A stretch of DNA of 64,000 nucleotides from a virus (IMGVR_UViG_3300026549_000033:1-64000), one strand, 5' to 3'. Shown: positions 1,444 to 31,453, counted from the first letter of the stretch. Translations and numbers: made by a program. Notes: generated by a model from the letters alone, not told the origin.

Positions 1444-2469
1444 TTGAATATTAAAGAACTTATAGCAAGTACAAATAGAGTTAAGAATAGAGACCAAGCC
1501 ACAGTTTTTCAGAAAAAGTTTGGTTCAATTTACGCTTTTAATAAAGACATTACTATTTTTAAGGGTGGTAATGCTATTATCATAAATATGATAATCGGAG
1601 GGGTAACTGACTATATAAAAATGGGAGGGAAAAGACAACCTGTTCCATTTCATAAGGTTTCTCTTGCTTTGAATGTAGGAAAAGACGGTAAGAAAGATTA
1701 TTCCCCTTCTGATTTAGTAAAGACTATCAGAGCTATGCACAAGGAATATAGTGACGAGAAGAAATGGCCTAATCCTGACGTGTTAAAAGCAGTATTAGAA
1801 AACCCAAGTAAGTTCTTTGAAAATGCCACGGTATTTAAAACAACTAATGGGGAGGGGTACACAGTAGTTACAAATAACATTCCTGAGGATAGTGAGGTTC
1901 AGGTATGGTGTAGCTGTTCTGACTACTATTGGACTTTCCAATATTACAACATTTCTACAAGGAATAAAGACGGAAGCTCTTTAAATCTTTATGGAGCTAC
2001 AGGGTATCCAAGAGTATATAATCATAGGAGTGCCACAGGAAAGAAGTCTAAAAGACCTATGAGAAACCCCGGCCGTAACCCCGGTATGTGCAAACACCTC
2101 ATGCTACTTGTAGCAATGCTAATGGAGGATGAAATAATAACAGATACTAAAGGCGGGCTAACCAAATACTATAAAGCAAACTATGACGAATTCTTAAAAG
2201 GTAATGAAAAGAAAAGAGTTAGCCAAGCTACCTTTGAAAGAAAAATGGAGCAATATGAAAGGGGTCATCGTTTAATGAACGACCAAAGGAACACAGCTCA
2301 TTATATGTCGGGTAATAAGACTGAGAGAAAGTTCAGGGCGGATAATCAAGACCTTAAAATAATAAATGAGAGTAATGAGAGTAAATTCAACCCTTTAACT
2401 CAACAAAGGAGTAGGAAATCTTCAGGTAGCTTTAATAGGAATACAGGAAGATTTAAATGGGAGAAATAA
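1444..2469 (+). CDS. SWIM-type zinc-finger-like protein (C-x-C ... C-x-H), 341 aa, TTG start.
   Basis: WCSCSDYYW ... GMCKHLMLLVAML fits a CxC-Xn-CxH SWIM-like pattern, although the spacer is long. RBS taggagagag, extended -10 tggtataat upstream, and stop/start coupling with the next ORF (taaATG). Confidence 0.5.
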   Translation: MNIKELIASTNRVKNRDQATVFQKKFGSIYAFNKDITIFKGGNAIIINMIIGGVTDYIKMGGKRQPVPFHKVSLALNVGKDGKKDYSPSDLVKTIRAMHKEYSDEKKWPNPDVLKAVLENPSKFFENATVFKTTNGEGYTVVTNNIPEDSEVQVWCSCSDYYWTFQYYNISTRNKDGSSLNLYGATGYPRVYNHRSATGKKSKRPMRNPGRNPGMCKHLMLLVAMLMEDEIITDTKGGLTKYYKANYDEFLKGNEKKRVSQATFERKMEQYERGHRLMNDQRNTAHYMSGNKTERKFRADNQDLKIINESNESKFNPLTQQRSRKSSGSFNRNTGRFKWEK

Positions 2470-2682
2470 ATGGTATTTAATTGTTTTAACTGTGGGGCTC
2501 CGCTTCCAATAAATTCTGTGAAGTGCAAGGAGTGCGGTTTTACCCCCGATATAGAATTTATGAGAAAATGTCCTAATTTAAAAGTAGCTACTTGTGTTCT
2601 TACGGGAAAGTTTTGTAATAACAAAGGAGCTTATCAAACTTGTCCTATAAAAAATAAAGCTGATTCTGAATGCGGGTATTAA
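2470..2682 (+). CDS. Small zinc-ribbon protein, 70 aa.
   Basis: Paired CxxC motifs (CFNCG ... CKECG ... C...C). Translationally coupled to both neighbours. Confidence 0.55.
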   Translation: MVFNCFNCGAPLPINSVKCKECGFTPDIEFMRKCPNLKVATCVLTGKFCNNKGAYQTCPIKNKADSECGY

Positions 2683-3740
2683 ATTCTAAATTTATGAAGA
2701 CTTTTAAAAATGAATTAAATCCTAAATTATATAATGGCGAAGAATTAAAGCCTGAAGTTTTAAAGAAGCTTAAAGAAATAGCTGAGGCTTTTATAGATTT
2801 TCTTGAAATTCCGAAAACCGCCGTAAAAGATATTGTTATAACAGGTTCCTGCGCTTCTTATAATTACACGAAGCATTCAGACATAGATTTACACGTAATT
2901 GTGGATCCTAATAAAGTTCATGAAGACTGCCCGATAGTAGGACCTTACCTCCTTTCTAAGAAATCTGAGTTTAATCAGAAGCATGATATTTATATTTATG
3001 GGGTTCCTGTAGAAGTTTATACAGAGTTAGAAGGACAGGGAACTATACATAATGGACTATACTCCTTAAACAATGGATGGATAGACTTTCCTAAGAAGAT
3101 ACCTCCTTTAAAAAATAGTGCAGCAGTAAAGGCTAAATACAATGAATATGTGGAAGCTGCCAAAGAAATTAAAGAGGGTGATTTAGCTGAAAAGCTTTTA
3201 GATAAAATTAAACGCATGAGAAAAGCAGGATTAGAAGAAGGCGGGGAGTTTTCTGTAGAGAATTTAGTATTCAAGAAATTAAGAGATAACGGTTTTATTG
3301 GTAAGCTTATGAAAATTAAAAAAGAAAAAGTGGATAAAGATCTTTCTTTAGAAGAAACTTATGAAGACTTAATAATGTCTATAGAAGAAATGATATGTAC
3401 TTCTACAGCAGTTATGGCTCCGTACCCTGTGAATGTAATAGGTAAACCTGTTACTTTCACAAAAATTAAAGGGGATAAAAAGGGGCACGGAGAAAAGAGA
3501 GCTCCTCATACAGAAACAGTAATTAAAGAAGAGTATGAAAAACAAAGTAAAGGAAACGAAAAATCTGCTATGTATAAATTTAGTTATAAGAAAAATGGAA
3601 AACTTCGTAAAGTAATGGAGAATATCGCAGAAGTTTGTGAAGCCATAATTTCTTTTGAAAATAAGATTAAGGCTCCTCAGTCAACTTTAGAAGAAAGTAA
3701 AAGTAACGGGATAGCTTACTTCTATAATAAAGTTAATTAA
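2670..3740 (+). CDS. Polymerase-beta-superfamily nucleotidyltransferase, 356 aa, with a Lys/Glu-rich C-terminal extension.
   Basis: VITGSCASYNYTKHSDIDLHVIV matches hG[GS]-x9-13-Dh[DE]h. A further acidic residue lies downstream (KHDIYIYG). Overlaps the upstream ORF by 13 nt. Confidence 0.6.
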   Translation: MRVLNSKFMKTFKNELNPKLYNGEELKPEVLKKLKEIAEAFIDFLEIPKTAVKDIVITGSCASYNYTKHSDIDLHVIVDPNKVHEDCPIVGPYLLSKKSEFNQKHDIYIYGVPVEVYTELEGQGTIHNGLYSLNNGWIDFPKKIPPLKNSAAVKAKYNEYVEAAKEIKEGDLAEKLLDKIKRMRKAGLEEGGEFSVENLVFKKLRDNGFIGKLMKIKKEKVDKDLSLEETYEDLIMSIEEMICTSTAVMAPYPVNVIGKPVTFTKIKGDKKGHGEKRAPHTETVIKEEYEKQSKGNEKSAMYKFSYKKNGKLRKVMENIAEVCEAIISFENKIKAPQSTLEESKSNGIAYFYNKVN

Positions 3741-3741
3741 T

Positions 3742-17876: not shown

Positions 17877-17877
17877 A

Positions 17878-18486
17878 ATGAGAACAGTAGTTTCAAAATC
17901 ATGGGATTTTCGGACTTATAGAATTCAAGCAAAAAGCAAATGTATTGAATGCGGAAAACCTATAAGTAAAACTTTTTCCTTTGAATACAGGGAAGACACA
18001 GAGCCTTGTTGGGTTGACATAGAAAAATTAAAGAAAGAAAAACAAGAATGGGAACAAGAATCTCATACTTGTACTTCTTGTTTAAAGAAAAGAATAAAGC
18101 AAGAAAGAAAAGATATGACACATGCCTATGACTTCACCTTAAATACTCTTATTGAGAAGCAGGAACAAATTTGTTCTTATATCGCAGATAAAAAGCGACA
18201 TATTGATTTTCTCAACGAAGAGCTAAAGAATAAAGTTATAGTTGATAAAGACGGTACCGAATGGGTAATTTATTCTGTTAGAGACGGGTGGCAGAATGGG
18301 GCAGCTATTGAGATAACCTGTGACAAAGTAAATAAAGTGAAGCCGTGGCTATGCTCAGACGAAGTTATTTATTTCTATGTAGGTTCTATAGATGGATGTT
18401 ATGATAATTATAAACCTTTATGTAGATGCACGATAACAGACGAAGACTTCAGTCAAAGAGCAAAACTTTTGAAAGGAGAAAATTAA
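17878..18486 (+). CDS. Zinc-ribbon-containing protein, about 203 aa.
   Basis: CIECGKP ... CTSC pairs. Start moved to the ATG at 17878, in frame with the tracked ORF, to avoid overlap. Confidence 0.5.
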   Translation: MRTVVSKSWDFRTYRIQAKSKCIECGKPISKTFSFEYREDTEPCWVDIEKLKKEKQEWEQESHTCTSCLKKRIKQERKDMTHAYDFTLNTLIEKQEQICSYIADKKRHIDFLNEELKNKVIVDKDGTEWVIYSVRDGWQNGAAIEITCDKVNKVKPWLCSDEVIYFYVGSIDGCYDNYKPLCRCTITDEDFSQRAKLLKGEN

Positions 18487-18710
18487 TGGGTTGGGCGAGC
18501 GGTTCAGGAATAGCAGAAGAACTATGGATTAAACTTAAACCTTATATTTCTCAGAGTAATTATAAGGAAGTTTCAAAGATTATTATAGATAAATTTTGTG
18601 AGTACGACGCAGACGATTGGGAGTGCTACCCGTCGGATGATTGTCTTTATTATGTATATTTAAAATACAATGAACCGAAAGAACTAGAGGAGTATGACTT
18701 TGGCTATTAA
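18486..18710 (+). CDS. Hypothetical small protein.
   Basis: In-frame ATG at 18486 directly after the upstream stop. Confidence 0.4.
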   Translation: MGWASGSGIAEELWIKLKPYISQSNYKEVSKIIIDKFCEYDADDWECYPSDDCLYYVYLKYNEPKELEEYDFGY

Positions 18711-19128
18711 AGAAATGGTATACATGAATAAATGGCTTTCTGCAGGTGAGGGAGTACTTGCTAAAGATTCATACAAAGGGTATGAATATATGGTGGTAAG
18801 TTACGGTATGCACCCGTGTGCTTACATAGCTCTTACAAAAGACCAACCTTATTATAAGGTAGCTGATTATGACGACGTTAGAATAAGTTGTCACGGGGGC
18901 TGTACTTTTGTAGAGTGGGGTTATGAAGGTGTATATGATCAAACTTATAAAGTTATAGGTTGGGATTATGGGCATTATACTGATTTTTCAGGTTCATACT
19001 TAAGCACAGGACATCCATTATCTGTACCAAAAGGGAAGAAATGGACTACAAAAGAAATAATAGATGAATGTGAGAACGTAATAGACCAACTTTATGTTCT
19101 TGAGCATTCTGAGTTATATTATAAATAA
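18694..19128 (+). CDS. Hypothetical protein, 144 aa.
   Basis: ORF. Confidence 0.5.
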   Translation: MTLAIKEMVYMNKWLSAGEGVLAKDSYKGYEYMVVSYGMHPCAYIALTKDQPYYKVADYDDVRISCHGGCTFVEWGYEGVYDQTYKVIGWDYGHYTDFSGSYLSTGHPLSVPKGKKWTTKEIIDECENVIDQLYVLEHSELYYK

Positions 19129-19141
19129 GAAAGGCTAAATT

Positions 19142-19333
19142 TTGAAGAGAAGAGATAGTAAAACATTAACTTTTAGTGATATGATTCAGTATGCAGATAT
19201 GCGAGAGGCTGTTTGTGAGGCACGTAGATTAATTAATTTAACAGATAATGTCTTAGTTCAGAACCACTTGCAAGCATATGCTTCAAAATTATGGGCTGAC
19301 TTTTGTAAATGGTTAGATGAAGAGGTGGAGTAA
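19142..19333 (+). CDS. Hypothetical protein, 63 aa.
   Basis: ORF. Confidence 0.4.
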   Translation: MKRRDSKTLTFSDMIQYADMREAVCEARRLINLTDNVLVQNHLQAYASKLWADFCKWLDEEVE

Positions 19334-19541
19334 AATGGCAATATGTAAAAAATGTGAATGGGAAGAAAAAGGAATGCTATCAGGGCAAGGTTTTACAGAT
19401 TTTGTATGTCAACTTTGTGGAAAAACCGATACGTGGCATAATACAAATGTTCCGAAGTTCTGTCATGAGTGTAGTAAGAAACTTGACATGTGCCAAAGAT
19501 GCGGAGGTCCTTTAAGTGAAACAGAAGATTTTAAAGCTTAA
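19317..19541 (+). CDS. Small zinc-ribbon protein (multiple CxxC).
   Basis: CKKCEW ... CQLCGK ... CHECSKKLDMCQRCGG. The likely true start is the internal ATG (MAICKKC). Confidence 0.5.
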   Translation: MKRWSKMAICKKCEWEEKGMLSGQGFTDFVCQLCGKTDTWHNTNVPKFCHECSKKLDMCQRCGGPLSETEDFKA

Positions 19542-19701
19542 AAAAAGACTAAGTTTATACGACATAGCATTGGATATAGGAATTTCAGAATCAACCTTAT
19601 ATAACTATGTTAATGAGTATAAGCAAATTAGTAAAAAGTCAGAAGAGAAGATAGAAAAATATTTTAGAAGGAGAGAAGAAAATGAGAATATTACCAATTA
19701 G
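19516..19701 (+). CDS. Small HTH-like DNA-binding protein, 61 aa.
   Basis: LSLYDIALDIGISESTLYNYV resembles a helix-turn-helix. Confidence 0.4.
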   Translation: MKQKILKLKKRLSLYDIALDIGISESTLYNYVNEYKQISKKSEEKIEKYFRRREENENITN

Positions 19702-19921
19702 TAGTAGAGTTACTTTTACAAATGCACAACCTCTTAAGAAAGAAGAAACAAAAGAGCAACAAAAACCTATGGAAATTATAGAATTAAAACCTGAGTTAAA
19801 AATTGATGAGGGTCAAAAAAGACTTCAAGAAGAAAGAAGAAGGAAAGAAGAGGAATTTCAGAGATTACTTGCTAAACCGCAGAAATTTCAAAAACCTGAA
19901 GGGAAAGTAAATGGAAAATAA
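19682..19921 (+). CDS. Small charged coiled-coil protein, 79 aa.
   Basis: ORF rich in K/E. Confidence 0.4.
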   Translation: MRILPISSRVTFTNAQPLKKEETKEQQKPMEIIELKPELKIDEGQKRLQEERRRKEEEFQRLLAKPQKFQKPEGKVNGK

Positions 19922-20591
19922 TTATCAAGGTTGGACAGGTAATAAGAATTCAACTTATACCTGTCTAGGAGCTTCAAATCATTCAAAAGAAGAAAGAGAA
20001 GTGCATGACTACTATGCGACGGACCCTATAGCTGCAGAATATCTATTGAAGATTGAACCGCAAATAACTAATGTATGGGAAATGTGCGTAGGAGAGGGTA
20101 ACTTAGCAGAACCTTATCGTAGAGAAGGTAAATTAAAAGCAATATCTGACCTTATTGATAGAGGGTACTATCCTGAGGGTATAATGACTTCTTATGGTAA
20201 AGATTTCCTGCAAATGAGTAAAGTATGGAAAGGGGATATGGTAAGTAATCCTCCGTATAGCATAGCTGTTGAATGGACTAAGCATTGTTTAGACTTATTA
20301 CAAGACGGACATTATTTAGCTCTTTTTATGAAGATTACTTTCTTAGAAGGGAAAGAGCGCAGAAAGTTCTTTGAAGATAACCCTCCAATTAGAGTTTGGG
20401 TTAGCTCTTCAAGAATTCAATGTGCCAAAAATAACGAATTTGAAGTTCCTAAGAAAGATAAAAATGGAAATGTTGTATATGACAAGACAGGAAACCCTAT
20501 AATGGTTAAGATGTCTTCTGCAGCATGCTACTGCTGGTATATATGGCAGAAAGGTTATAAAGGACCAACGGAACTGAAGTGGTTCAATTAA
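19911..20591 (+). CDS. Orphan DNA N6-adenine (NPPY-type) methyltransferase, phage Dam-like, 226 aa.
   Basis: MVSNPPYS motif IV. Upstream Gly-rich EMCVGEGN. No adjacent endonuclease. Confidence 0.65.
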   Translation: MENNYQGWTGNKNSTYTCLGASNHSKEEREVHDYYATDPIAAEYLLKIEPQITNVWEMCVGEGNLAEPYRREGKLKAISDLIDRGYYPEGIMTSYGKDFLQMSKVWKGDMVSNPPYSIAVEWTKHCLDLLQDGHYLALFMKITFLEGKERRKFFEDNPPIRVWVSSSRIQCAKNNEFEVPKKDKNGNVVYDKTGNPIMVKMSSAACYCWYIWQKGYKGPTELKWFN

Positions 20592-20645
20592 TTTTACAAA
20601 TTTTGTAATTTGTGATATTATTAAAATATAGAAAGGGACAGAGTA

Positions 20646-20888
20646 ATGAATAAATTTATTCTATATTATTTTGTATCAGGATTGCTGATGTTTTCTTGGT
20701 TTTATTATGACATGAATTATTCAAAGTATAAGGAAGAGTCTGAGGACGCAATAGGAGACTTAACGTGGAATACAGGGATTAAGAGAGAATACATTAGATG
20801 GGTTCTCTACAGTGTTGCACTCCTTTTTGGGTTTATACTGCTCCCTTATGAAATAATAAGTAACTTTATAGGTAAAGGAGAAGAGTAG
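20646..20888 (+). CDS. Small membrane protein (2 TM).
   Basis: Two hydrophobic helices. Confidence 0.45.
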   Translation: MNKFILYYFVSGLLMFSWFYYDMNYSKYKEESEDAIGDLTWNTGIKREYIRWVLYSVALLFGFILLPYEIISNFIGKGEE

Positions 20889-21206
20889 ATGAAAGTTAAA
20901 GAACTTTATGAATTTTTGCAGAAGTACTTAGAAGGTGGAAATATTTCCCCTGAAACAGAGGTTATTCTTATAGGAGAATACAATTACGGAGAATCTGTGG
21001 GAAAACCATATATAGCAAATATGAACCTTATTGACGGGACAGAAGTTGTTAAAGAAGATACAAGAGTTGTGGCTATAAGTGTTGACGCTTATTTATATGA
21101 GCATGAAGACACAGGATACTCTCGTATGTGGGTTGATAATGAAGACCTTCAAGACCTTAAAGATAATGACATTGTAGATTGCGGGGATGAAGAGCATGAA
21201 GGTTAA
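20889..21206 (+). CDS. Hypothetical acidic protein, 105 aa.
   Basis: ORF. Confidence 0.45.
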   Translation: MKVKELYEFLQKYLEGGNISPETEVILIGEYNYGESVGKPYIANMNLIDGTEVVKEDTRVVAISVDAYLYEHEDTGYSRMWVDNEDLQDLKDNDIVDCGDEEHEG

Positions 21207-21999
21207 GCTCATACAAATAACACAAAATCCAATAGATGTAATGTGGACAGCGGCAAGAACCTGTTATTCAGAAAAGTCCCCTATTGAAATGTGGGAAGAC
21301 AGGTATGGGGCTACTTCAGACGATTGTGAACATACTCAAGAGTGGACAGAACAGTGTGTAGAGAAGCATTGGAATCTTGTTAAAAAAGTATTGGATAGTG
21401 GACATCAATCAATTGCAGAACATGTTTATTTTACATTTGCCATTGAAGGTATAAGTAGAGCATGTTCACACCAATTAGTAAGACATAGGGCAGGTATTGT
21501 ATTTTCTCAACAATCCCAAAGGTATGTAGAAATAAAAGAGTCATTACAAGAGCTCAGGGATATAAGAGAACACTGTGGGGTTGCTAAAACTGCTGGGACT
21601 GTAGAGAAATATTTTGTTCCAAATCAAGATGGAATGTCGGGTTTAAAATATGCCGAATTAGATTGTCTTATAGAATATAGGAGACTTATAGAAGAAGAAA
21701 GTATGGCACCAGAAGATGCTAGAGCAATTCTTCCAAATGCAACAAAAACAAATATTACAATGTCTATAAATTATAGGGAGCTAATTCATATTTGTAATTT
21801 AAGATTATGTACAAGAGCTCAAAAAGAAATAAGAGATCTATTCAACTTTATTGTAAAAGAAGTTGAAAAAGAAGACGAAAGATTAGTAAAATACCTCGTC
21901 CCGCAGTGTGAGGTGCTTGGGGTTTGTACTGAGCACCAATGCTGCGGTCGTAAACCGAAGTTAAAAGAAATAATGGAAGTTTATAAAAGAGAAAAGTAA
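21187..21999 (+). CDS. thyX: Flavin-dependent thymidylate synthase ThyX.
   Basis: SHQLVRHRAGIVFSQQSQRY matches the ThyX RHR-x7-S signature. Confidence 0.8.
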   Translation: MKSMKVKLIQITQNPIDVMWTAARTCYSEKSPIEMWEDRYGATSDDCEHTQEWTEQCVEKHWNLVKKVLDSGHQSIAEHVYFTFAIEGISRACSHQLVRHRAGIVFSQQSQRYVEIKESLQELRDIREHCGVAKTAGTVEKYFVPNQDGMSGLKYAELDCLIEYRRLIEEESMAPEDARAILPNATKTNITMSINYRELIHICNLRLCTRAQKEIRDLFNFIVKEVEKEDERLVKYLVPQCEVLGVCTEHQCCGRKPKLKEIMEVYKREK

Positions 22000-22023
22000 C
22001 TTTATTAAAGAAGGAGAAAAAAC

Positions 22024-23559
22024 ATGAATTTCATTCCACACTTATCCCCAATTTTAATTGTTGCGGGTGTATCATTTTTAGCAGTCTCATTATTCATTAA
22101 ATGGGTGTTGAGCCTGCGTGTAGTAGTACCTACGTCAGAAGTACACGTAGTACAAAGAGCTGGAGAAACTATCCTCTACGGAAAGGCAGCTCAAACAAAA
22201 GATAATAAAACAGGAAATGCTTATTATGCTTTTCCGTCTTGGCTACCTGTTATTGGAATTACAAAAACTGTTTTAGGAACAGGAATTTTTGACAGAGACC
22301 TTAAAGACTATGAAGCTTATGATAAGGATCGTTTACCTTTCATGGTTGACGTAAAAACATTTTTTAGAATTAAAGATTTTGATGCAGCTTCTATTCGTGT
22401 AACAAGCATGAAAGAGTTAGAAGAACAGTTAGACGGTATTGTTCAAGGGGCTGTTCGTTCGTTACTTGCTAAAGAAGACCTTGAATCTATAATGTCTGAA
22501 AGAAATAAATATGGTAAGCAGTTTACAGAAGAAGTTGCTCCTCAGTTAGAACAATGGGGTGTAGAAACTGTAAAGAATGTTGAATTAATGGATATTAGAG
22601 ACTCAAGAGATTCCAAAGTTATTCAAAATATAATGGCTAAAAAGAAATCTCAAATTGAAATGGAAAGTCGTACAACTGTTGCTGAAAATACTAAAAAAGC
22701 AAGTCAGGCTGAAATAGAATCTCAGAAAGAAATTGCTCTTAAACAACAGGACGCTGAAAGAGAAGTTGGATTAAGAAAAGCTCAAGTAGCTCAAGAGGTT
22801 GGTATAGCTGACGAAAAACAAAAGCAAGAAGTTCAAGCACAGGCTAAAGTAACTGCTGAAAAAGAAATGGAAGTTCAAAGAGTGCGTGAAGTGCAAACTG
22901 CTGAAATTGAAAAACAAGCAGCCACAGTCAGAGCTGAACAAGATAAAGCTGTTATTGAAGTTAATGCTAAGGCAGCAGTAACTAAAGCGGACGCTGACAA
23001 AAACGTTAGAATTCTTAATGCTGAAGCAAGTCAACAACAGACTATCCTTGAGGCAGAAGCAACGAAGCAACAGATTGAATTAAGAGCAGATGCTGACCTT
23101 AAAGTTGCTACAAACACTGCTAAAGGTATTGAGGCAAAAGGTAAGGCTCAGGCAGAAGCAGATAAATTGAGTAAGATAGCCTCAGTTCAAGACCAAGTAA
23201 CTTTAGCAAAAGAAGTTGGTGAAAATAAACCTTATCAAGAATTCTTAATTGCTCAAAAGCAGATTGAAGTACAAGGTAGCGTAATGAAAGAAGTAGGTGT
23301 CGCTCAAGCTCAGAATTTGGGTAATGCAGACATTAAAATGTTCGTTAATTCAGGGTCAGTTCCTGAAGGAGTAGGTAAGGCTGCAAGTATATTTAATCCT
23401 GATACAGCTATGAATGTAGCGTCTATGCTTGAAGCTTTCAAATCAACTCCTATGGGAGCAGAAATAGTTGATAAGCTACTTGGTACGGGTAACGTTGTTA
23501 AAACTGTAGAGACAATTGAACAAGTTAAGACAGCTGTGAATAAACATAAAGATAAGTAA
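22024..23559 (+). CDS. SPFH/band-7 (flotillin-like) membrane protein with a long coiled coil, 511 aa.
   Basis: N-terminal TM, SPFH-like region, then an extended EA/Q-rich coiled coil (AEREVGLRKAQVAQEVG ...). Confidence 0.6.
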   Translation: MNFIPHLSPILIVAGVSFLAVSLFIKWVLSLRVVVPTSEVHVVQRAGETILYGKAAQTKDNKTGNAYYAFPSWLPVIGITKTVLGTGIFDRDLKDYEAYDKDRLPFMVDVKTFFRIKDFDAASIRVTSMKELEEQLDGIVQGAVRSLLAKEDLESIMSERNKYGKQFTEEVAPQLEQWGVETVKNVELMDIRDSRDSKVIQNIMAKKKSQIEMESRTTVAENTKKASQAEIESQKEIALKQQDAEREVGLRKAQVAQEVGIADEKQKQEVQAQAKVTAEKEMEVQRVREVQTAEIEKQAATVRAEQDKAVIEVNAKAAVTKADADKNVRILNAEASQQQTILEAEATKQQIELRADADLKVATNTAKGIEAKGKAQAEADKLSKIASVQDQVTLAKEVGENKPYQEFLIAQKQIEVQGSVMKEVGVAQAQNLGNADIKMFVNSGSVPEGVGKAASIFNPDTAMNVASMLEAFKSTPMGAEIVDKLLGTGNVVKTVETIEQVKTAVNKHKDK

Positions 23560-23585
23560 ATTTAGCGTATTTTTGAATTCCATGT

Positions 23586-23617
23586 TCCCTACTCAAAAGG
23601 TAGGGAATTTTTTTTTA
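23586..23617 (+). terminator. Rho-independent terminator (ccctac-tcaaaag-gtaggg plus a T9 run).
   Basis: Perfect 6-bp stem followed by aatttttttttt. Confidence 0.8.
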
Positions 23618-23622
23618 TAAAA

Positions 23623-23651
23623 TTTGCATATTTTTTAATTTATGCTATAAT
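23623..23651 (+). promoter_or_regulatory. Promoter TTTGCA-N17-TATAAT.
   Basis: aaaatttgca ... tataat with 17-nt spacing, upstream of prs. Confidence 0.55.
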
Positions 23652-23680
23652 GAAATTATAAAAAGGGAAGGCATGAAAAT

Positions 23681-24658
23681 ATGAGAGTAGACAGTGTGGC
23701 AGCTTCTTCCCCTCAAGTAAATTTCAAAGGAAGAAATATTATGGGAAGAGAAGCAATCAGATTAATACCTTCGTCAATGAGAACACCTCTTGAAGAAAGT
23801 ATAGCAAAATTAATGGAGATGGTTCCAACTCCAACAGTAGTAAAAAAATTTGCTAATGGAGAAACTTATGTAAACATTATGGGAGACATGAGAAATAAAG
23901 ACGTATTCCTCATGCCTACTATTGGAAGAGCAGTAAATGACAACCTTATGGAGACTTATCTTAAAGCCGACGCAGCTAAAAGAATGGGGGCCAATCGTGT
24001 TGTAGCAGTTATGCCAAACTTTCCGTATGGAAGGCAGGAGCGTAAAACTCAATTTGGTGAACCTATCTCTGCAAGGTTGAACCTATCTTTGTTGCATGCT
24101 TCAGGAGTTGACGAAGTTATTTCTACAGACATTCACGCAGCAGCTCTTCAGGGGTTTGCTCGTCAAATGAAATTAACAGATCTAAGCTCTTTAGAAGAAA
24201 TGACAGCTTACTTTAAGGGTAAAGTAAACTTTAAACCCGAGAATTTAGTAGTAGTCTCCCCTGATTTAGGAGGAGTAAAAAGAGCAGATAAATTTGCTAA
24301 AGAACTTGGCTGTGAAAAAGCAATTATTTATAAAAATAGAACAGGGCATAATCAGGCAGTAGCGGAATCCTTATTAGGCGACGTAGAAGGTAAGGATTGT
24401 ATTATTTATGATGATATTATAGATACTGCAGGGACAATAACAGAAGCTGCAAGAATGCTAAAAGAAAACGGAGCAAATAAAATTTATATTGCGGCTTCTC
24501 ATGGATTGTTCAACGGCCCCGCTTTAGAAAGGTTAGAAAAGGCTCCTATTGAGGAAGTAGTAGTTACAAATTCAGAGTTAAAACCTGCTTTAGATAAAAT
24601 TAAGCAAGTAGATATAGCTCCTAAAATTGTGGGTACTATTTTAGATATTTCAGGTTAG
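23681..24658 (+). CDS. prs: Ribose-phosphate pyrophosphokinase (PRPP synthetase family).
   Basis: KKFANGETYVNI, NDNLMETYLKADAAKR, VMPNFPYGRQERK, VVVSPDLGGVKRA and CIIYDDIIDTAGT (PRPP-binding motif). The likely true start is the ATG at 23741 (MGREAIRL), which has a better RBS. Confidence 0.8.
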   Translation: MRVDSVAASSPQVNFKGRNIMGREAIRLIPSSMRTPLEESIAKLMEMVPTPTVVKKFANGETYVNIMGDMRNKDVFLMPTIGRAVNDNLMETYLKADAAKRMGANRVVAVMPNFPYGRQERKTQFGEPISARLNLSLLHASGVDEVISTDIHAAALQGFARQMKLTDLSSLEEMTAYFKGKVNFKPENLVVVSPDLGGVKRADKFAKELGCEKAIIYKNRTGHNQAVAESLLGDVEGKDCIIYDDIIDTAGTITEAARMLKENGANKIYIAASHGLFNGPALERLEKAPIEEVVVTNSELKPALDKIKQVDIAPKIVGTILDISG

Positions 24659-24664
24659 GAGGAC

Positions 24665-24892
24665 GTGATGAGTACTCTTATTGATAACTTAATTGATTTA
24701 AGAACTTGCAATCAAGAATTTAATGGAGCATGGTATATAGCCAAACCTTATGAATTCTTTGGGTTTGCTACTTTTATACGTAGATTAAAAGACGCTTGGA
24801 GAGTTTTGACAGGAAAATCAAGGGCTTACCATTTTTATGAAGATACTTTAAAGAAAAGACCTAAAGTTATACATATGATAGAAGGAGAGTAA
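24665..24892 (+). CDS. Hypothetical protein, 75 aa.
   Basis: ORF. Confidence 0.45.
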   Translation: MMSTLIDNLIDLRTCNQEFNGAWYIAKPYEFFGFATFIRRLKDAWRVLTGKSRAYHFYEDTLKKRPKVIHMIEGE

Positions 24893-24898
24893 AGAAGT

Positions 24899-25372
24899 AT
24901 GAGCTGCTTATTAGACCACGCAAGGAATGAATTAAAATTAGCTGGGTACAATATTGATACCCCAGATAAGAATAGCTTTGAATCTGACGAAGATTATGGA
25001 AATGCATGCGCCAAAAATGCTTATGAAATGTTAAAAGTATTTTCTTCGGCAGATCATTCAGGGTTTTCAGCAGGAGCCACACTTGCTTTATTTAATAAAT
25101 TAGCAGAATTTAAGTGCCTGACTCCTTTAACCAATAATCCTGACGAATGGATGGATACTTCGGAGTTCCAAGGAGAACCTGTAGGAACGCATTTTCAGTC
25201 AAAAAGACAGAGCTCTTGCTTTTCAGACGACGGATTAAAAACTTACTATGATATAGATGAAAAAGCAAATAAAGAGTATGACCTCGATGAAAAAGGGAAA
25301 AGAACAGGTTGGGTTCATATGAAACCCCGTGAAGAGTGGGTTCACCATAAATTAGAGGATTATAAAAAATGA
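24899..25372 (+). CDS. Hypothetical protein, 157 aa.
   Basis: ORF. Its stop overlaps the first copy of the 41-bp repeat (aaaATGA). Confidence 0.5.
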   Translation: MSCLLDHARNELKLAGYNIDTPDKNSFESDEDYGNACAKNAYEMLKVFSSADHSGFSAGATLALFNKLAEFKCLTPLTNNPDEWMDTSEFQGEPVGTHFQSKRQSSCFSDDGLKTYYDIDEKANKEYDLDEKGKRTGWVHMKPREEWVHHKLEDYKK

Positions 25373-25406
25373 GAAGGAGCGGAGGGTACAGAATAATGAA
25401 AAATGA
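25366..25406 (+). repeat. 41-bp direct repeat, copy 1 (aaaatgagaaggagcggagggtacagaataatgaaaaatga). A truncated duplicate of the start of the gene at 28389.
   Basis: Identical to 28386-28426. The copy here encodes MRRSGGYRIMKN and then diverges to a stop after 21 codons. Confidence 0.9.
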
Positions 25407-25567
25407 GGTTACTATGTTGGTTAGGCTATCATGATTATGAATATAACAAAGATAGAACCAAAAGATGGTGTAAGCACTGCGGTAAGTGTCAAGAGAGGTG
25501 CCTGCTTGATTTATTTTGGGCAACGTGTGTTGACGGAGAACCAATAGAAGACCCGCAACCACAGTAA
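25403..25567 (+). CDS. Small Cys-rich (zinc-ribbon-like) ORF, 54 aa, inside the inserted segment.
   Basis: ATG at 25403. CKHCGKCQERC ... C pattern. Not in the ORF track. Weak RBS. Confidence 0.3.
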   Translation: MRLLCWLGYHDYEYNKDRTKRWCKHCGKCQERCLLDLFWATCVDGEPIEDPQPQ

Positions 25568-25662
25568 CCTTGTAATTACTTTTGAATTGTGGTAATATAA
25601 AAGTAATTATGTAGGTAGCCAATAGACTGGAATGTTGAAGCTACTTAGAAAGGAAAGAGAAA

Positions 25663-28386
25663 ATGAGATATTTATTTGTATTAAGAGGGGCACCCGCCTC
25701 AGGTAAGAGTACATGGATTAAAGAAAATGAATTAGAACCATATACATTAAGTACAGATAGTTTAAGATTAATGTATCAATCTCCTGTAACAACTGCAGAA
25801 GGAGATAGAAAAATTTCCCAAAATAATGATAAGGAAGTTTGGAATTTACTTATGGAGCTTCTTGAAAGAAGAATGGAAAATGGTGAGTTAGTTGTTATAG
25901 ACGCTACTCATTATAAATCTTCCCTTATAAATAGATATAAAGACCTTGTATCAAAATATAGATATAGAGTTTATGTTGTAGATTTTTCTAATGTATCAGA
26001 AGAAGAATTAAAAAGAAGAAATGCTACAAGAGGATTTAGAAAAGTTCCAGATGAAGTAATTGAGAAAATGGTTGTAGCCTTAGCGGATACTAATGAAGTT
26101 AAAAAACAATATAAAATAGTATCTCCTGAAGAAGCAATTACATTAATAAATTCTCCCTTAGAGCCATTTGACGTAAATGAATATGAAAAAGTTGTAATCT
26201 TTGGGGATATACATGGTTGTTATGACCCATTAAAAGAATATTTTGATAAGAATCCATTTAATGAAAATTACAATTATATTTTCTGTGGAGATTATTTAGA
26301 TAGGGGATTACAAAATAAGGAAGTTTTGGAATTTTTAATTTCTTTAAAAGATAAAAAGAATTGTGTATTCTTAGAAGGTAATCATGAGAAATGGTTGAGA
26401 ATATATTCTCAAAAAGATTATGATATGGATTACTACGAGAATAGACCTGTTGAGTATAAAGACCCATTTGTTACTAAATTAATTGCTCAATTAAAAGACA
26501 AACAAGTTATTTTAGAGAAAAAGATAAATAAGAATAAAAATATGTCTGAGGAATTGTCTAAGCTATTAAGGGAATCTTGGGAAACAAATCCTGAGAACAG
26601 AGAAGTATTTTATAGATTTGAAAAAATAAATGTTCCTGAAAAACAAAAGGAATTACATAAAGAAATACAAGAATGTGAATACAGGTTAGAAAAACTAATT
26701 AGATTAATTACTGTGCTGCAGCATGAAGAGCACAATACGAAAGATTTTATACAAAATTGTAGAGAATGGTTTAAAGAAGAGTTCTCTACGGATTTATCTT
26801 TAGATATTACAAACATTTTAGAAAAGAATTATAATGTGGAATCTAAAAGAAAACAAAATCCAATTCGTTCTTTAGAATTTATAAAAAGAACATATCCACA
26901 AATCAAAGATATTGATAAAACAGAAATAAGAAGATTCTGCGATAGATTAGCACAAATGAGTTATTTTACATTTAATGGACATGATTATTTGGTAACTCAT
27001 GGTGGTGTACCATGTATGCCTACAATGAAAACACAAACAATAGAATTAATTAAAGGTGTAGGTAAATATGAAGACCATGATAAAATAGATAAACAATTTA
27101 ATGAAAATGAAGAAAAGAATAAAACATGGACAGTCCAAATACACGGTCATAGAAATGTAATGAGAGTTCCTGTTGTATCAAATGAGAACATGACATTCAA
27201 TTTAGAAGGTCAAGTAGAGTTTGGTGGACACTTAAGAATTGTAGAACTTGGAGATTTTCCTGAAGGACATTGGAATATTGTAGAAATTAAGAACGAGACT
27301 TATGATATTCCAGAAGTAAAAGAGGAAGAAGAAAAATCTGACATAGAACTGCTTAGAGAAATGTATGATAGTAAATGGGTACAGGTTAAAAACTTAAAAG
27401 ATAATGTAATAAGTTTTAACTTTACAAGAGACGCTTTTGAAAAAGGAAAGTGGGATACAATAACAACAAAAGCAAGAGGTTTGTTTATAGATAAAACAGA
27501 CGGGCACGTTGTAGGAAGAAGTTTTGATAAATTCTTTAACTATAGACAACATGAAACAACAGAACCTGCTTATATGAAGGAACATATTAAGTGGCCTTTA
27601 ATTGGATATAAAAAAGAAAATGGATTCTTGGGTATTGTATCTAAAGATAAAAATGGAGTACATTTCTTTACTAAATCTTCTGATGAAGGTGACTATGTAA
27701 ATTGGTTTATAGGTGTACTATGTGATAATTATGGAATAACTTATATATCCAATAGTAGATATTCAGATATTTATAACAAATTAGTTAATGAAAGAGATGA
27801 AATAGATAAGGTTAATCGTAGAACTGAATTAAATATTTTAAAAACAGAATTAACTAATAAATTATCACCATTATTAGCGGAAGGGTGTTCCTATGTATTT
27901 GAATGTATAGATAAAGATAATGACCCACATATTATAAAATATGATAGTAATAAGGTAATCTTGTTAGAAATCTTTGATAATCAACTAAAAGAAAAACACT
28001 ACAATTATGAGGATTTAAAAACAATAGGGCAGGCTTTAAATGTTCCTGTTAAAGAAAAAGCACTTGTATTTAATAACTGGGAAGAATTTGAAGAATGGAA
28101 AGATAAATTCAGACAAGGATTATCTCAATGGGATTGTAAGCATGAAGGATATGTATTTGAAGACCAAAATGGATATAGGGTTAAGTTTAAATCTTCATTC
28201 TATAATTTTTGGAAACAAATGAGAGCTTTAAAAGACGTTATGGCAGGCGGAAGAACAAACAAGAAAGTTTATAAAACTAAAGAAGAAATACAGGTTGTAA
28301 AACTCATGGAAGAATTAGGTAGAGATAGGCTTAAAGAAATGTCTATTATTGATGTAGAAGATATGTTTTATGAAAGGTATAAGTAA
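25663..28386 (+). CDS. pnkp: Trifunctional polynucleotide kinase-phosphatase-ligase (Pnkp-type RNA repair enzyme), 907 aa.
   Basis: N-terminal P-loop kinase similar to T4 Pnk (RGAPASGKSTW ... RRNATRGFRKVPDEVIEKM). Central calcineurin-type phosphoesterase (GDIHGCYD, GDYLDRG, GNHEKW). C-terminal domain with a lysine-nucleotidyltransferase-like KENG motif (YKKENGFLG). Confidence 0.7.
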   Translation: MRYLFVLRGAPASGKSTWIKENELEPYTLSTDSLRLMYQSPVTTAEGDRKISQNNDKEVWNLLMELLERRMENGELVVIDATHYKSSLINRYKDLVSKYRYRVYVVDFSNVSEEELKRRNATRGFRKVPDEVIEKMVVALADTNEVKKQYKIVSPEEAITLINSPLEPFDVNEYEKVVIFGDIHGCYDPLKEYFDKNPFNENYNYIFCGDYLDRGLQNKEVLEFLISLKDKKNCVFLEGNHEKWLRIYSQKDYDMDYYENRPVEYKDPFVTKLIAQLKDKQVILEKKINKNKNMSEELSKLLRESWETNPENREVFYRFEKINVPEKQKELHKEIQECEYRLEKLIRLITVLQHEEHNTKDFIQNCREWFKEEFSTDLSLDITNILEKNYNVESKRKQNPIRSLEFIKRTYPQIKDIDKTEIRRFCDRLAQMSYFTFNGHDYLVTHGGVPCMPTMKTQTIELIKGVGKYEDHDKIDKQFNENEEKNKTWTVQIHGHRNVMRVPVVSNENMTFNLEGQVEFGGHLRIVELGDFPEGHWNIVEIKNETYDIPEVKEEEEKSDIELLREMYDSKWVQVKNLKDNVISFNFTRDAFEKGKWDTITTKARGLFIDKTDGHVVGRSFDKFFNYRQHETTEPAYMKEHIKWPLIGYKKENGFLGIVSKDKNGVHFFTKSSDEGDYVNWFIGVLCDNYGITYISNSRYSDIYNKLVNERDEIDKVNRRTELNILKTELTNKLSPLLAEGCSYVFECIDKDNDPHIIKYDSNKVILLEIFDNQLKEKHYNYEDLKTIGQALNVPVKEKALVFNNWEEFEEWKDKFRQGLSQWDCKHEGYVFEDQNGYRVKFKSSFYNFWKQMRALKDVMAGGRTNKKVYKTKEEIQVVKLMEELGRDRLKEMSIIDVEDMFYERYK

Positions 28387-28426
28387 AAATGAGAAGGAGC
28401 GGAGGGTACAGAATAATGAAAAATGA
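28386..28426 (+). repeat. 41-bp direct repeat, copy 2. The intact start of the downstream gene.
   Basis: Identical to 25366-25406. Confidence 0.9.
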
Positions 28427-28643
28427 CTCGCATACAAAAATAAGAATTGAAACGGACTTTGATTTTAACGAGAAAGTTATTATAAAGCCTCTAAAAATAG
28501 AGGGTACTATAGAAAGCTTTTGGTTAAACAAAGCCAAAGAACTCAAAGTAGAAGTTAGATATTTTCTTAATAATGAGATAAAACTTGATTATTTCTACTG
28601 TGATGAGTTGGAGGTTTTGAAAGAATCTAAGACAGGGGTTTAG
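28389..28643 (+). CDS. Hypothetical protein, 84 aa. Its first 12 codons are duplicated at 25369.
   Basis: ORF whose start lies within the repeat. Confidence 0.5.
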   Translation: MRRSGGYRIMKNDSHTKIRIETDFDFNEKVIIKPLKIEGTIESFWLNKAKELKVEVRYFLNNEIKLDYFYCDELEVLKESKTGV

Positions 28644-28649
28644 TGTATA

Positions 28650-28952
28650 ATGCACGGATGGAACTTATATAAAAAATGTGAAGTACCTATACCTAATTTT
28701 CCCATGTCCCCTCAATTTTCAGAGCATCAGCAATTGGAGCTTTTCAAAGTTCTTTGCTGTGGAAGATGGATAGAAATAGCTCAAAAGGCATTCTATGAAG
28801 GTATGTGGTACGCGGGCGGGGTTGATTACAAGAGGCGTTTAATAACTCACTCCTTTGAGGAGGCTGTATGTGGCTTAATTCTTAAATATTGGGAAGAAAT
28901 GAGTACTCAAGATAAAGCTAAAGTTAAAAAAATATTGGAGGGTAACATATAA
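28650..28952 (+). CDS. Hypothetical protein, 100 aa.
   Basis: ORF. Confidence 0.45.
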   Translation: MHGWNLYKKCEVPIPNFPMSPQFSEHQQLELFKVLCCGRWIEIAQKAFYEGMWYAGGVDYKRRLITHSFEEAVCGLILKYWEEMSTQDKAKVKKILEGNI

Positions 28953-29287
28953 TGTTTTGTGAGCATAACTGTCCTTTTTATGAAGAGCACGGTGGAGAGT
29001 ATTATCAAGGCTGTTGGGAATTCTATGATATCTGTTGGGCTGCTCCTGATTTAGGAGTTCTTCCTGTTACTTGTACTCCTGAATGCTTTTTTATTAGAGG
29101 GGACGAAAGTGAAATGGTAGACGTTTGTAATAAAGCTATGAGCCATCAAAAGTGGGTGAGCCAATGGAATGCTCCTGCAACTTATAGAACTTTGACAAAT
29201 GAGGAAAGAAAGTATATAATAAGAGATATGGAAGTTTTCATAAAAGCATTCACAGAACTGAGAACTCCTATATCATATTATAAATAA
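28952..29287 (+). CDS. Cys-rich hypothetical protein, 111 aa.
   Basis: ORF with scattered Cys and His (CEHNCPFYEEHGG ... C). Confidence 0.45.
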   Translation: MFCEHNCPFYEEHGGEYYQGCWEFYDICWAAPDLGVLPVTCTPECFFIRGDESEMVDVCNKAMSHQKWVSQWNAPATYRTLTNEERKYIIRDMEVFIKAFTELRTPISYYK

Positions 29288-29299
29288 GGAAAGAGCAGC

Positions 29300-29650
29300 G
29301 TGGGAACAAACTATTACTGGTACAGAGAAGCACAGTGGGAAGGACCTAAAGAAGAAGGTCTTCATATAGGAAAGCGTTCTTGTGGGTGGGTTTTTAATTT
29401 TGAAGCTCATTATGACAAGTTTCAAAGGTATAAGTTAACTTCTTATGCAGCATGGAAAGAATTTCTTAAAGAAGGTTTTATTTATGACGAGTACGGAGAG
29501 TTCATTCCTTATAAGAAGTTTATAAAACTTGTGGAAGCCACAAGACCTAAAGGAAAGACTTTTGAAGATATTCCTGAAGCTGAGCAAATTCATTTATGCG
29601 ACGAATGGGTAGACGCAGGCTTTATGTTCACATTAGGGGATTTTTGTTAA
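29300..29650 (+). CDS. Hypothetical protein, 116 aa.
   Basis: ORF. Confidence 0.45.
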   Translation: MGTNYYWYREAQWEGPKEEGLHIGKRSCGWVFNFEAHYDKFQRYKLTSYAAWKEFLKEGFIYDEYGEFIPYKKFIKLVEATRPKGKTFEDIPEAEQIHLCDEWVDAGFMFTLGDFC

Positions 29651-29660
29651 AGGAAAACAT

Positions 29661-30338
29661 ATGAGCACAATAAATTTAAAAGTAAAACAAGCAAATGAAA
29701 GATATGAGTTATCTGTTAACCAAAAAATAGAAGAATATGTGTCTAAGTTAGAAGAAAAAGTGCAGAAGGTTATTCGTTTGTCGTCTAATGGGCACGAATA
29801 TTGGTCAAAAACAGTCACAATGATCAGGCATGAATACGACTTAAATCAGATTGCACTATGGATAAGAGCTGTAATCTTAGCTAAAATGGATTCTTATTAT
29901 TTGTATTTTACTTTTGGGAAATACAAAGGTAGAATAGTTCAAGACATTTTGGAAGAAGACGAAAGCTATTGTCATTGGTTTCTTCACGAGGTTAGGGGAA
30001 ATGACTTTAATACTTTAAAAATACTGGACTATTTGTCAAAGTGCATATTTTACGGTCAACAAACAGTAATACTTGATATACCTTGGGGTGTTCAAATGCA
30101 GTATTATAAGTATTGGTTAGGAGACCCATATGTAATTTTTGAAGAAGTTATATCTGAACTTCCAGATAAAATAGCTAAAGAGGCAAGAGAAGATAAGAAC
30201 TTTATCTTAGAGTTTTTCTCCTATTCAGGCTGTAAGTCAAAATCTTATAATATAAAGAGCTCTGATTTGGACTGTGGTGGAATGTCGCCATGGGAAGAAA
30301 TAATGAGTGACGTGATAGACTACGGAGACTTATGTTAA
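29661..30338 (+). CDS. Hypothetical protein with a DUF3820-like motif (FGKYKG ... Y..WFL), 225 aa.
   Basis: YFTFGKYKGRIVQDILEEDESYCHWFL. Confidence 0.4.
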   Translation: MSTINLKVKQANERYELSVNQKIEEYVSKLEEKVQKVIRLSSNGHEYWSKTVTMIRHEYDLNQIALWIRAVILAKMDSYYLYFTFGKYKGRIVQDILEEDESYCHWFLHEVRGNDFNTLKILDYLSKCIFYGQQTVILDIPWGVQMQYYKYWLGDPYVIFEEVISELPDKIAKEAREDKNFILEFFSYSGCKSKSYNIKSSDLDCGGMSPWEEIMSDVIDYGDLC

Positions 30339-30703
30339 TGATATTTACAGGTTATTACGCAAAACTTAATCAATATAAAACCCTTGGTTTAGAACCCATA
30401 GCAATTTCAGGGAAAAGACCTAACTTTTATGAAGGATTATATTATCCTGATTTTGCTCCACGTTATTGGATGTATCAAAGGTGGAAGGATAAAGATATTA
30501 CAAATGAAGGGTACACGATAGAGTATAAAAATTATTTGAATACTTTAGATAAAGAAGAAATAAGAAAGGACTTTGAATCCTATAATGGAGAAGGAAATCA
30601 TTGCATACTTCTTTGTTACGAAAAACCTCATGATTTCTGTCATAGACATGTTCTTGCTGAATGGCTTGAAGAGAACTTTGGATGGAGAATTGAGGAAATA
30701 TAA
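30332..30703 (+). CDS. DUF488-like small protein, 123 aa.
   Basis: LLCYEKPHDFCHRHVLAEWL matches the conserved C...CHR motif of the family. Confidence 0.4.
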   Translation: MLMIFTGYYAKLNQYKTLGLEPIAISGKRPNFYEGLYYPDFAPRYWMYQRWKDKDITNEGYTIEYKNYLNTLDKEEIRKDFESYNGEGNHCILLCYEKPHDFCHRHVLAEWLEENFGWRIEEI

Positions 30704-30709
30704 AGAGTA

Positions 30710-31453
30710 ATGGCAAAAAAGACATTTTTTCTGCGTGGTTGCAGAACTATAGATAAAAATAAGAAAACCTATGAAGAGAAGGCTCAAGAAACAAAACAGC
30801 ATTCTGCAAGATTAGCTGAAATGCAGAGGTACGTTGATATGTCTGAGGAGAAAAGAAATCTCCTTATGGACTTAGTTCTTAATGGCAAAAGCTCTGACAG
30901 TGATGAATCTCTACTTGATAAGGGTGTTATTATTTACATTCAGTTTTTAGACGTTATTGCTCAAGTAGAACAAGATTTTAAAGATAAAGGAATTGAAGTA
31001 CTTGTAATTCAAGGGAGTACTAAAGATAAGAAACGTGGCGAGATAGCTAAGGAGTTTCGTGGAGACCCGAAAAGTAAAGTTGTCTTAATTTCTAATGCTG
31101 CAGGGGAAAGTTTAAATCTTCAGGCAACAAACGAAATTTTTCTTTACGATATCCCGCCCGGAGTCGGAAAATTTAATCAGACTATTGGTAGAATAGCAAG
31201 AAGTTTTAGTAAATTTGAAGAAGAAGGACGGAGCTTCTATATTCACTATGTTATTGTAGAGGACACCTTAGACGTCTACAAACCTATTTTATTGTCTTCA
31301 AAGAAAGAACTTGAAGAAGAGATACTTCATGCAGATACTATAAATCTTAAAGGTACAGGAAGTTTTGATAATGAAGTCCTTAAGAGAATAAGAAAAGATA
31401 TGCTGTGGAAAGAAAAAGAGAAGATGAAGGCTAAAAGGAAAGGCGAAATTTGA
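30710..31453 (+). CDS. SNF2-family helicase, C-terminal lobe only (Helicase_C, motifs IV to VI), 247 aa.
   Basis: VLVIQGSTKDKKRGEIAKEF, VVLISNAAGESLNLQATNEIFLYDIPPGVGKFNQTIGRIAR. Confidence 0.7.
   Translation: MAKKTFFLRGCRTIDKNKKTYEEKAQETKQHSARLAEMQRYVDMSEEKRNLLMDLVLNGKSSDSDESLLDKGVIIYIQFLDVIAQVEQDFKDKGIEVLVIQGSTKDKKRGEIAKEFRGDPKSKVVLISNAAGESLNLQATNEIFLYDIPPGVGKFNQTIGRIARSFSKFEEEGRSFYIHYVIVEDTLDVYKPILLSSKKELEEEILHADTINLKGTGSFDNEVLKRIRKDMLWKEKEKMKAKRKGEI

Follow-up and report, generated by a model that had tools for sequence, protein, structure and literature searches.

The present analysis concerns two genes that probably encode the halves of a single SNF2-type DNA motor on a viral DNA of 64,000 nucleotides (nt; IMGVR_UViG_3300026549_000033:1-64000), the whole of which is referred to here as the window. 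The window is AT-rich (GC content of approximately 34%), and its long open reading frames (ORFs) lie almost exclusively on the plus strand. A Megablast comparison of its 14-32 kb region with a phage collection returned no close cultured relative, and the best tblastn matches of either helicase lobe and of the DNA polymerase in that collection displayed at most 32% identity. An original prediction, made from the window sequence, had recognized a SNF2 helicase gene in three collinear pieces, i.e., a SWIM-like ORF, an ORF for the first ATPase lobe (N-lobe), and an ORF for the second lobe (C-lobe; coordinates in Table 1).

Two SNF2 lobe genes in one viral locus

The N-lobe gene had been described as a SNF2 N-lobe that carries GSGKT, DEAH, and TATP motifs and then stops, and the ORF, its motifs, and its Pfam matches all agree with that description. 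The protein matched the Pfam families ResIII, DEAD, and SNF2-rel_dom, each above its own cut-off, with 41.3 bits for SNF2-rel_dom (cut-off 24.9) and slightly higher scores for ResIII and DEAD. Residues G30, G32, and K33 of motif I, D132, E133, and H135 of motif II, and T162-P165 of motif III are invariant across the clade of split proteins described below. Likewise, the assignment of the ORF 13.7 kb downstream as a C-lobe with motifs IV to VI is consistent with the ORF and with its Pfam match to Helicase_C. In the translation, motif V reads S128..G132-E-S and motif VI reads Q157..G160-R161..R164; S128, G132-S134, Q157, G160, R161, and R164 are invariant, and the protein ends in a conserved C-terminal helix finishing in LLWK. 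No second SNF2 copy was found within the window.

Both proteins matched the same PHROG profile, phrog_62 ('DNA helicase'), in abutting segments (positions 692-944 for the N-lobe and 937-1133 for the C-lobe). An exhaustive HMMER search for N-lobe relatives returned, at 37% identity or more, stand-alone proteins of approximately 265-283 aa or fragments, and full-length fused relatives of 450-515 aa were encountered only at identities of 30% and below; these fused proteins share 28-41% identity with the window C-lobe. Within these single chains the N-lobe and C-lobe matches abut as well (residues 14-264 and 240-461 of P0140, 7-293 and 251-484 of P0137), and the fused relatives, when searched back against the window, matched the two lobe ORFs alone. 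In the fused relatives P0137-P0189 the N-lobe match begins at residue 2-36, mostly 2-20, and starts later only in longer outliers, for example P0157. In a joint alignment of split and fused proteins, core segments are neither missing nor duplicated, and the break coincides with a short loop of the fused relatives at which the split proteins are longer, by an N-lobe C-terminal tail of about 15 residues and a basic C-lobe head of about 30 residues, both of which are confined to the split clade. Judged by these alignments, the split pair covers a single-chain homologue exactly and in N-to-C order.

Structural comparisons placed the pair in the same family. The best PDB sequence matches of both halves are SNF2 proteins, and the family profile matched the Sulfolobus solfataricus Rad54-like SWI2/SNF2 core (1Z63) from end to end (E=7.6e-34). 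The window N-lobe and C-lobe, concatenated into one chain and modelled by AlphaFold2 on an alignment that included fused as well as single-lobe homologues, yielded a mean predicted local distance difference test score (pLDDT) of 87.8 and a predicted template modelling score of 0.84. Confidence dipped at approximately residues 261-310, which span the junction at 279/280, and fell below a pLDDT of 50 only at residues 283-308, just after the junction. All of the top 50 PDB fold matches of this joined model (Foldseek) are SNF2-family ATPases, including SMARCAD1, Chd1, SNF2h, ISW1, CSB, Ino80, DDM1, Mot1, and SsoRad54. The pair thus has the motifs, sequence-model matches, and fold of the SNF2 family and departs from it in not being a single polypeptide, the lobes being separate in all 15 contigs compared.

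Distribution and age of the split

The window was compared with 14 related contigs that span both halves (42-99% identity), giving 15 loci. Both pieces are present in every contig that extends far enough, and down to 42% identity they occur as separate, intact ORFs on the same strand with the N-lobe gene preceding the C-lobe gene. In a collection of 5.8 billion proteins, the best 120 N-lobe homologues (down to 64% identity) are 216-310 aa in length and none includes a C-lobe, and the best 120 C-lobe homologues are 230-252 aa. Neighbour-joining trees, constructed for each half with 12 fused outgroups and 200 bootstraps, recovered the split clade as monophyletic in 165 (N-lobe) and 200 (C-lobe) of the replicates, and the two trees are congruent, with the same two subclades. 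Between the window and its relative L003 (89-94% identical) the ratio of nonsynonymous to synonymous substitutions (dN/dS) amounts to 0.086 in the N-lobe gene and 0.035 in the C-lobe gene, at a dS of 1.0-1.4 with synonymous sites near saturation. These patterns indicate that both halves are under strong purifying selection and co-inherited.

An origin of the lobes from different SNF2 subfamilies, raised in the original prediction as a possible objection, was not borne out: the same fused proteins are nearest to both lobes and the trees agree, which supports a common descent of the two lobes from a single SNF2 gene belonging to one subfamily. The other objection, that related phages might share the split without any intact relative, holds for the close relatives, intact fused proteins being met with only at 30% identity or less. 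Since all close relatives are split, a recent insertion is refuted, and the reading of a functional split enzyme is strengthened. Four proteins of the size of a lone lobe 1 (P0187, P0225, P0235, and P0269; 278-311 aa) are 25-30% identical to the window N-lobe and could represent independent fissions in other lineages or truncated gene calls.

The gap between the halves (stop of the N-lobe gene to start of the C-lobe gene) differs widely among the 15 loci. In L008 the gap is -11 nt, i.e., the ORFs overlap in different frames, and the C-lobe ATG lies within the last N-lobe codons behind a GAGGA Shine-Dalgarno sequence. Two conserved small ORFs fill gaps of 463 nt (L005 and L078), 474 nt (L007), and 493 nt (L077), and three other small ORFs occupy the 704 nt of L079. 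Larger gaps are found in L080 (1954 nt), L073 (1957 nt), L050 (2574 nt), L047 (4092 nt), L049 (6965 nt), L074 (7610 nt), L076 (8757 nt), and L003 (9255 nt), and that of the window is the widest of the 15 (13724 nt). The backbone order around the gap is conserved (5'-3' exonuclease, N-lobe, C-lobe, a homologue of the window gene w42829, and DnaB). Of the 14 related contigs, 12 have the exonuclease gene ahead of the N-lobe gene; it was not found in the other two, whose N-lobe genes are cut by the end of the contig. The exonuclease homologues in L047, L049, and L050 match PF02739. Moreover, the distance from the C-lobe gene to the w42829 homologue, the gene before DnaB, varies as well, from about 0.3 kb in L005 to 11.4 kb in the window.

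Perfect TTGACA-N17-TATAAT sites occur seven times in the window, all on the plus strand and just upstream of genes, at an expectation of 0.04 by chance, which suggests that a set of strong promoters of the phage relies on the primary sigma factor of the host. The site in front of the exonuclease gene may be the start of the transcription unit of the N-lobe gene, and the site at 29192 that of the unit of the C-lobe gene. Because of these two putative promoters and a terminator-like hairpin at 23584, the strongest between the lobe genes, the lobes are probably encoded on different transcripts.

A probable two-subunit motor and alternative explanations

A motor of the SF2/SNF2 type is commonly regarded as one chain whose two tethered RecA lobes close on ATP. 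The two ORFs described here probably encode subunits of one SNF2-type DNA-dependent ATPase/translocase belonging to the replication-recombination module, which would have arisen by one old fission and subsequently have been separated by cargo. The lobe-1 protein would supply the P-loop and the DEAH box, and the lobe-2 protein motifs IV-VI including the motif VI arginines. As the chain is cut between the RecA lobes, the ATP site would be inter-subunit and, like the DNA-tracking surface, would exist only upon non-covalent association of the two polypeptides. The earlier suggestion of a multipartite helicase with lobes that associate in trans fits the conservation data.

The ancestor is envisaged as a compact single chain of about 460-500 aa without accessory domains. 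One fission in the flexible inter-lobe linker would have produced two adjacent, translationally coupled genes, an arrangement that is still found in L008. The junction between the separated halves would thereafter have behaved like any intergenic junction of a phage, acquiring small ORFs first and later kilobases of accessory, nucleotide-metabolism, and anti-defence genes, amounting to 13.7 kb in the window. The 11-nt overlap in L008 and the age of the fission imply that the cargo came later, between genes that were already separate. Successive large insertions into one ancestral gene, as originally proposed, are therefore upheld with respect to the single ancestral gene and not with respect to insertion into an intact gene, against which the L008 overlap and the graded gaps argue. 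Growth of the gap by ordinary accretion, at this and at neighbouring replication-module junctions, is the best reading of the gap series.

Several observations weigh against a two-subunit enzyme with this history. Mutual binding of the lobes and ATP hydrolysis are predicted activities, and the AlphaFold2 chain was covalently joined, so that the model speaks for compatibility of the halves with a normal SNF2 core and not for complex formation. The new termini are weakly complementary in charge (N-lobe tails average -0.6 and C-lobe heads +3.9). Separate promoter-defined units with a hairpin between them, which are pattern matches only, would be odd for obligate partners, neither a homing endonuclease nor any other trace that accounts for the fission was found, and the split clade was sampled exclusively from metagenomic sequences.

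The SWIM-like ORF bears on the number of pieces, since a SWIM-SNF2_N-Helicase_C ancestor that broke twice would leave it as the SWIM domain of a three-piece gene. It lies upstream of the N-lobe gene on the same strand, it carries a CxC...CxH signature that is invariant in its family (C156, C158, C216, and H218, with a spacing of about 44-57 residues), and two of its distant relatives reach SWIM scores below the cut-off (E 0.06-0.09). Nevertheless, the ORF itself has no Pfam SWIM (PF04434) match at E<=5, no PHROG match, and no PDB sequence match. Its 88 homologues all stand alone (233-420 aa, without a Pfam domain), as do remoter relatives of 166-189 aa from other phages (phrog_18980), no SNF2 lobe occurs within 6 kb of the phrog_18980-type relatives, and the 8.7 kb that precede the N-lobe gene of L005 contain no SWIM-like ORF. 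The search for an intact SWIM-SNF2 gene in relatives, suggested with the original prediction, led to nearest fused helicases that lack a SWIM or any other N-terminal domain and none of which matches the SWIM-like ORF. As the fused relatives begin at residue 2-20 and the SWIM-like ORF belongs to a separate family, the helicase gene comprises two pieces and not three; the ORF was rejected as a helicase piece, a role that its stand-alone family and the extension-free fused relatives effectively refute, and a three-piece gene deserves next to no credence. No more can be said for two decaying remnants of a helicase gene destroyed by a large insertion, an account that accords with the 13.7 kb between the halves and with the failure to find an intact helicase copy in the window: low dN/dS with synonymous sites near saturation, ORFs of tightly conserved lengths that stay intact in every one of the 15 contigs, at identities as low as 42%, and invariant catalytic motifs exclude pseudogene remnants.

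Rejoining of the halves by a split intein, by RNA trans-splicing, or by ribosomal frameshifting or bypass would have precedent in phage genes that are split by inteins and homing endonucleases (PMC2677866). The family itself contains an intein (LAGLIDADG type, after N-lobe motif I in L079), and a frameshift fusion is conceivable for the overlapping L008 frames. The L079 intein lies at the P-loop, however, and a search for an intein or homing endonuclease at the break in the window and in six relatives found none. Pfam searches of both lobe ORFs for inteins or endonucleases returned helicase domains only, and the clade-specific extensions of merely 15 and 30 residues or so have no Hint or intein match. 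No homing endonuclease or Hint domain was detected in the gap ORFs of the window, L005, L073, L077, L079, and L080, some small ORFs being left unscanned, and the ORFs that flank the break in the window encode a 65-aa hydrophobic protein and a DUF488 protein. Rfam searches of the window at gathering thresholds yielded no intron and no other family. The C-lobe ATG of L008 is preceded by a separate Shine-Dalgarno sequence, and a frameshift is unable to bridge 0.5-13.7 kb with many ORFs and stops. Rejoining is hence regarded as very improbable. With no intein, homing endonuclease, or intron at the break, the lobes are inferred to assemble in trans, most likely acting as two associated polypeptides.

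It is also unlikely, albeit far less so, that the lobes have functionally diverged, each acting alone or with another partner and no longer as one ATPase. The apparent location of the lobes in different transcription units and the weak charge complementarity of their new termini would suit such divergence, and association of the lobes is deduced rather than directly observed. Opposed to it are the presence of both lobes on every contig that reaches far enough, the congruent lobe phylogenies, the invariance of motif V and of the motif VI arginines in the C-lobe, and the failure to find another lobe-1 or lobe-2 partner in the window. Motif V and the motif VI arginines of SF2 enzymes act only at an ATP site built together with lobe 1. 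An adaptive split, in which an obligate two-polypeptide SNF2 motor forms its ATP site only where two lobes from separate genes and separate transcripts meet, is likewise doubtful. If it were true, the phage could gate assembly of the motor by timing or stoichiometry or evade host defences that recognize an intact phage helicase, and the pair would be a natural SF2 motor built as a heterodimer of single RecA lobes.

Related systems exist among phages and beyond. The closest are compact, single-chain SNF2-type 'DNA helicases' (phrog_62; P0137, P0139, and P0140, 460-490 aa), which belong to the same subfamily at 26-37% identity and are annotated as DNA helicase in Gordonia, Pseudomonas, Stenotrophomonas, and SP-10-like Bacillus phages. 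They share with the split pair the blocks KNL..LR and HSARL..LQ..VD, the C-terminal LLWK, and the lack of accessory domains; the split proteins differ from them by the cut in the inter-lobe linker, the extensions at the new ends, and the distance of up to 13.7 kb between the genes. The 1Z63 core, Chd1, ISWI/SNF2h, CSB, and Ino80 have the same two-lobe fold and motifs and are single chains, unlike the window pair. In Ino80 and SWR1 a very long insert is accommodated between the lobes, which remain covalently linked through it. The family profile matched Ino80 in two stretches, the first of which ends at about profile position 233, in the vicinity of the split.

The T4 topoisomerase gp39/gp60 is an intein-less gene in pieces. 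Fractured phage genes with split inteins and endonucleases (PMC2677866) likewise represent a replication gene in two parts with order and orientation kept in one locus, but neither split-intein halves nor an endonuclease occur at the window break, and protein splicing is not expected. The same source cites NrdA of Aeromonas phage Aeh1 as split by a homing endonuclease, and jumbo phages encode a split minimal DNA polymerase III alpha and split RNA polymerase subunits in distant genes (PMC7824862). With the intein-less cases of Aeh1 NrdA, T4 gp39/gp60, and the jumbo-phage polymerases the present pair has in common that an enzyme made as a single chain in other organisms is encoded by two conserved ORFs in N-to-C order with presumed non-covalent reassembly, and that the pieces can be far apart in the genome. 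It differs from them in its enzyme class, a motor of the SF2/SNF2 type severed between the RecA lobes, in lacking a homing endonuclease at the break, and in its graded series of gaps. Full-text literature searches yielded no description of a naturally split SNF2 or SF2 helicase in phages, which is not proof that none exists.

The widespread split clade offers a natural system for the study of how important the covalent tether is and of what holds the lobes together in its absence. Moreover, the relatives keep a stepwise record, from an overlap via two small ORFs and 2-9 kb to 13.7 kb, in which a replication-module junction fills with accessory and anti-defence cargo such as ThyX, methyltransferases, Tad3, and an RNA-repair enzyme. 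The case is also a caution for annotation, since a gene called 'truncated helicase' in a phage of this kind probably encodes one half of a functional enzyme.

Genes between and around the lobe genes

Table 1. Coordinates of the lobe genes, their motifs, and other features of the window.
Feature	Coordinates	Strand	Basis or remark
SWIM-like ORF	1444-2469	+	
Seven consensus promoters, 29 nt each	6048, 14789, 29192, 31450, 34700, 38800, 62201	+	
Sigma-70-type consensus promoter (TTGACA-17-TATAAT), just upstream of exonuclease gene	14789..14817	+	pattern match
5'-3' exonuclease (FEN-like) gene, conserved neighbour upstream of N-lobe gene	14824..15693	+	phrog_107 exonuclease
SNF2 ATPase lobe 1 (RecA-like domain 1 and helical protrusion), 279 aa	16146..16985	+	Pfam, PHROG, PDB, alignment
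Motif I GSGKT (G30-S-G-K-T)	16233-16247	+	translation of N-lobe
Motif II DEAH (D132-E-A-H)	16539-16550	+	translation of N-lobe
Motif III TATP (T162-A-T-P)	16629-16640	+	translation of N-lobe
Inter-lobe cargo block, about 30 same-strand ORFs	16987..30703	+	
DNA methyltransferase	19911-20591	+	inter-lobe
ThyX	21187-21999	+	inter-lobe
SPFH/flotillin-like	22024-23559	+	inter-lobe
Strongest terminator-like hairpin between lobe genes, 10-bp stem and T-run, after SPFH gene	23584..23608	+	pattern match only
PRPP-synthetase-like (Prs)	23681-24658	+	inter-lobe
Tad3-like, type I Thoeris inhibitor (anti-Thoeris)	24899-25372	+	PF25185, E 3e-31
Kinase-metallophosphatase-Rnl1-type RNA ligase (Pnkp-like), 907 aa	25663-28386	+	inter-lobe
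Sigma-70-type consensus promoter, upstream of 29300..DUF488..C-lobe	29192..29220	+	pattern match
225-aa ORF with ExoX-like C-terminal motif	29661-30338	+	inter-lobe
DUF488	30332-30703	+	inter-lobe
SNF2 ATPase lobe 2 (RecA-like domain 2, motifs IV-VI), 247 aa	30710..31453	+	Pfam, PHROG, PDB, alignment
Motif VI QTIGRIAR	31178-31201	+	translation of C-lobe

The methyltransferase, ThyX, flotillin, Prs, and Pnkp genes that had been listed between the lobes were all found there, and the tail module reported upstream of the N-lobe gene was recognized by its tail tube, tape measure, and baseplate hub genes. ThyX lies within the gap of all six other loci of the window subclade (clade A) at 64% identity or more, and DUF488 within that of five of these six, L074 being the locus in which it was not found; the gap of L073 (61% identity) holds neither. 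Gap content varies among the relatives with respect to methyltransferases, phosphatases, a glycosyltransferase, and the SPFH-Prs-Tad3-Pnkp block of the window. The genes at 23681-28386, encoding the Prs-like protein, the Tad3-like protein, and the RNA ligase, are likely an anti-defence cluster, which is absent from L003 (89% identical), and the 907-aa kinase-phosphatase-ligase resembles bacterial Pnkp RNA-repair enzymes. Downstream of the C-lobe gene, the 31453-42829 region contains an H-NS-like ORF, a phrog_9968 methyltransferase, a T5 A1-like 'DNA transfer' phosphoesterase, and two minus-strand genes.

The pairs of small gap ORFs in the distant subclade are located at 9539-10022 in L005, 10782-11364 in L007, 10831-11338 in L077, and 765-1284 in L078. 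The first ORF of a pair encodes about 90 aa with the motif 'FY(I/R)VRAVT', and the second about 80 aa, very basic at the N-terminus and perhaps folded as a ribbon-helix-helix; these small ORFs have no Pfam match and no homologue in the window. The N-lobe ORF of L079 (4275-6170; 46% identical relative) is a stand-alone ORF of 631 aa with an in-frame LAGLIDADG homing-endonuclease intein directly after motif I. In addition, L050 (78% identical) carries, just upstream of its exonuclease and N-lobe genes, a 789-aa DNA cytosine methylase gene (6531-8900) that is interrupted by an intein with Hint, Intein_splicing, and LAGLIDADG matches.

The SWIM-like family is widespread among phages (the window ORF and L053-L067), and its CxC...CxH signature is probably a metal site. 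The family diverges much faster than the genes next to it, the window member having 43% identity to its counterpart in the L003 contig against 60-90% for neighbouring genes. The AlphaFold2 model of the window ORF had a mediocre pLDDT of 68, and a fold search against BFVD returned an uncharacterised 195-aa siphovirus protein as the sole match (E 5e-3). No tRNAs were found in a scan of the window. Finally, the phage has genes for a GroEL-like chaperonin (49461-51071; phrog_5725, E 6e-157) and for an anaerobic ribonucleotide reductase of the NrdD type (45104-47095), the latter of which hints at an anaerobic host.

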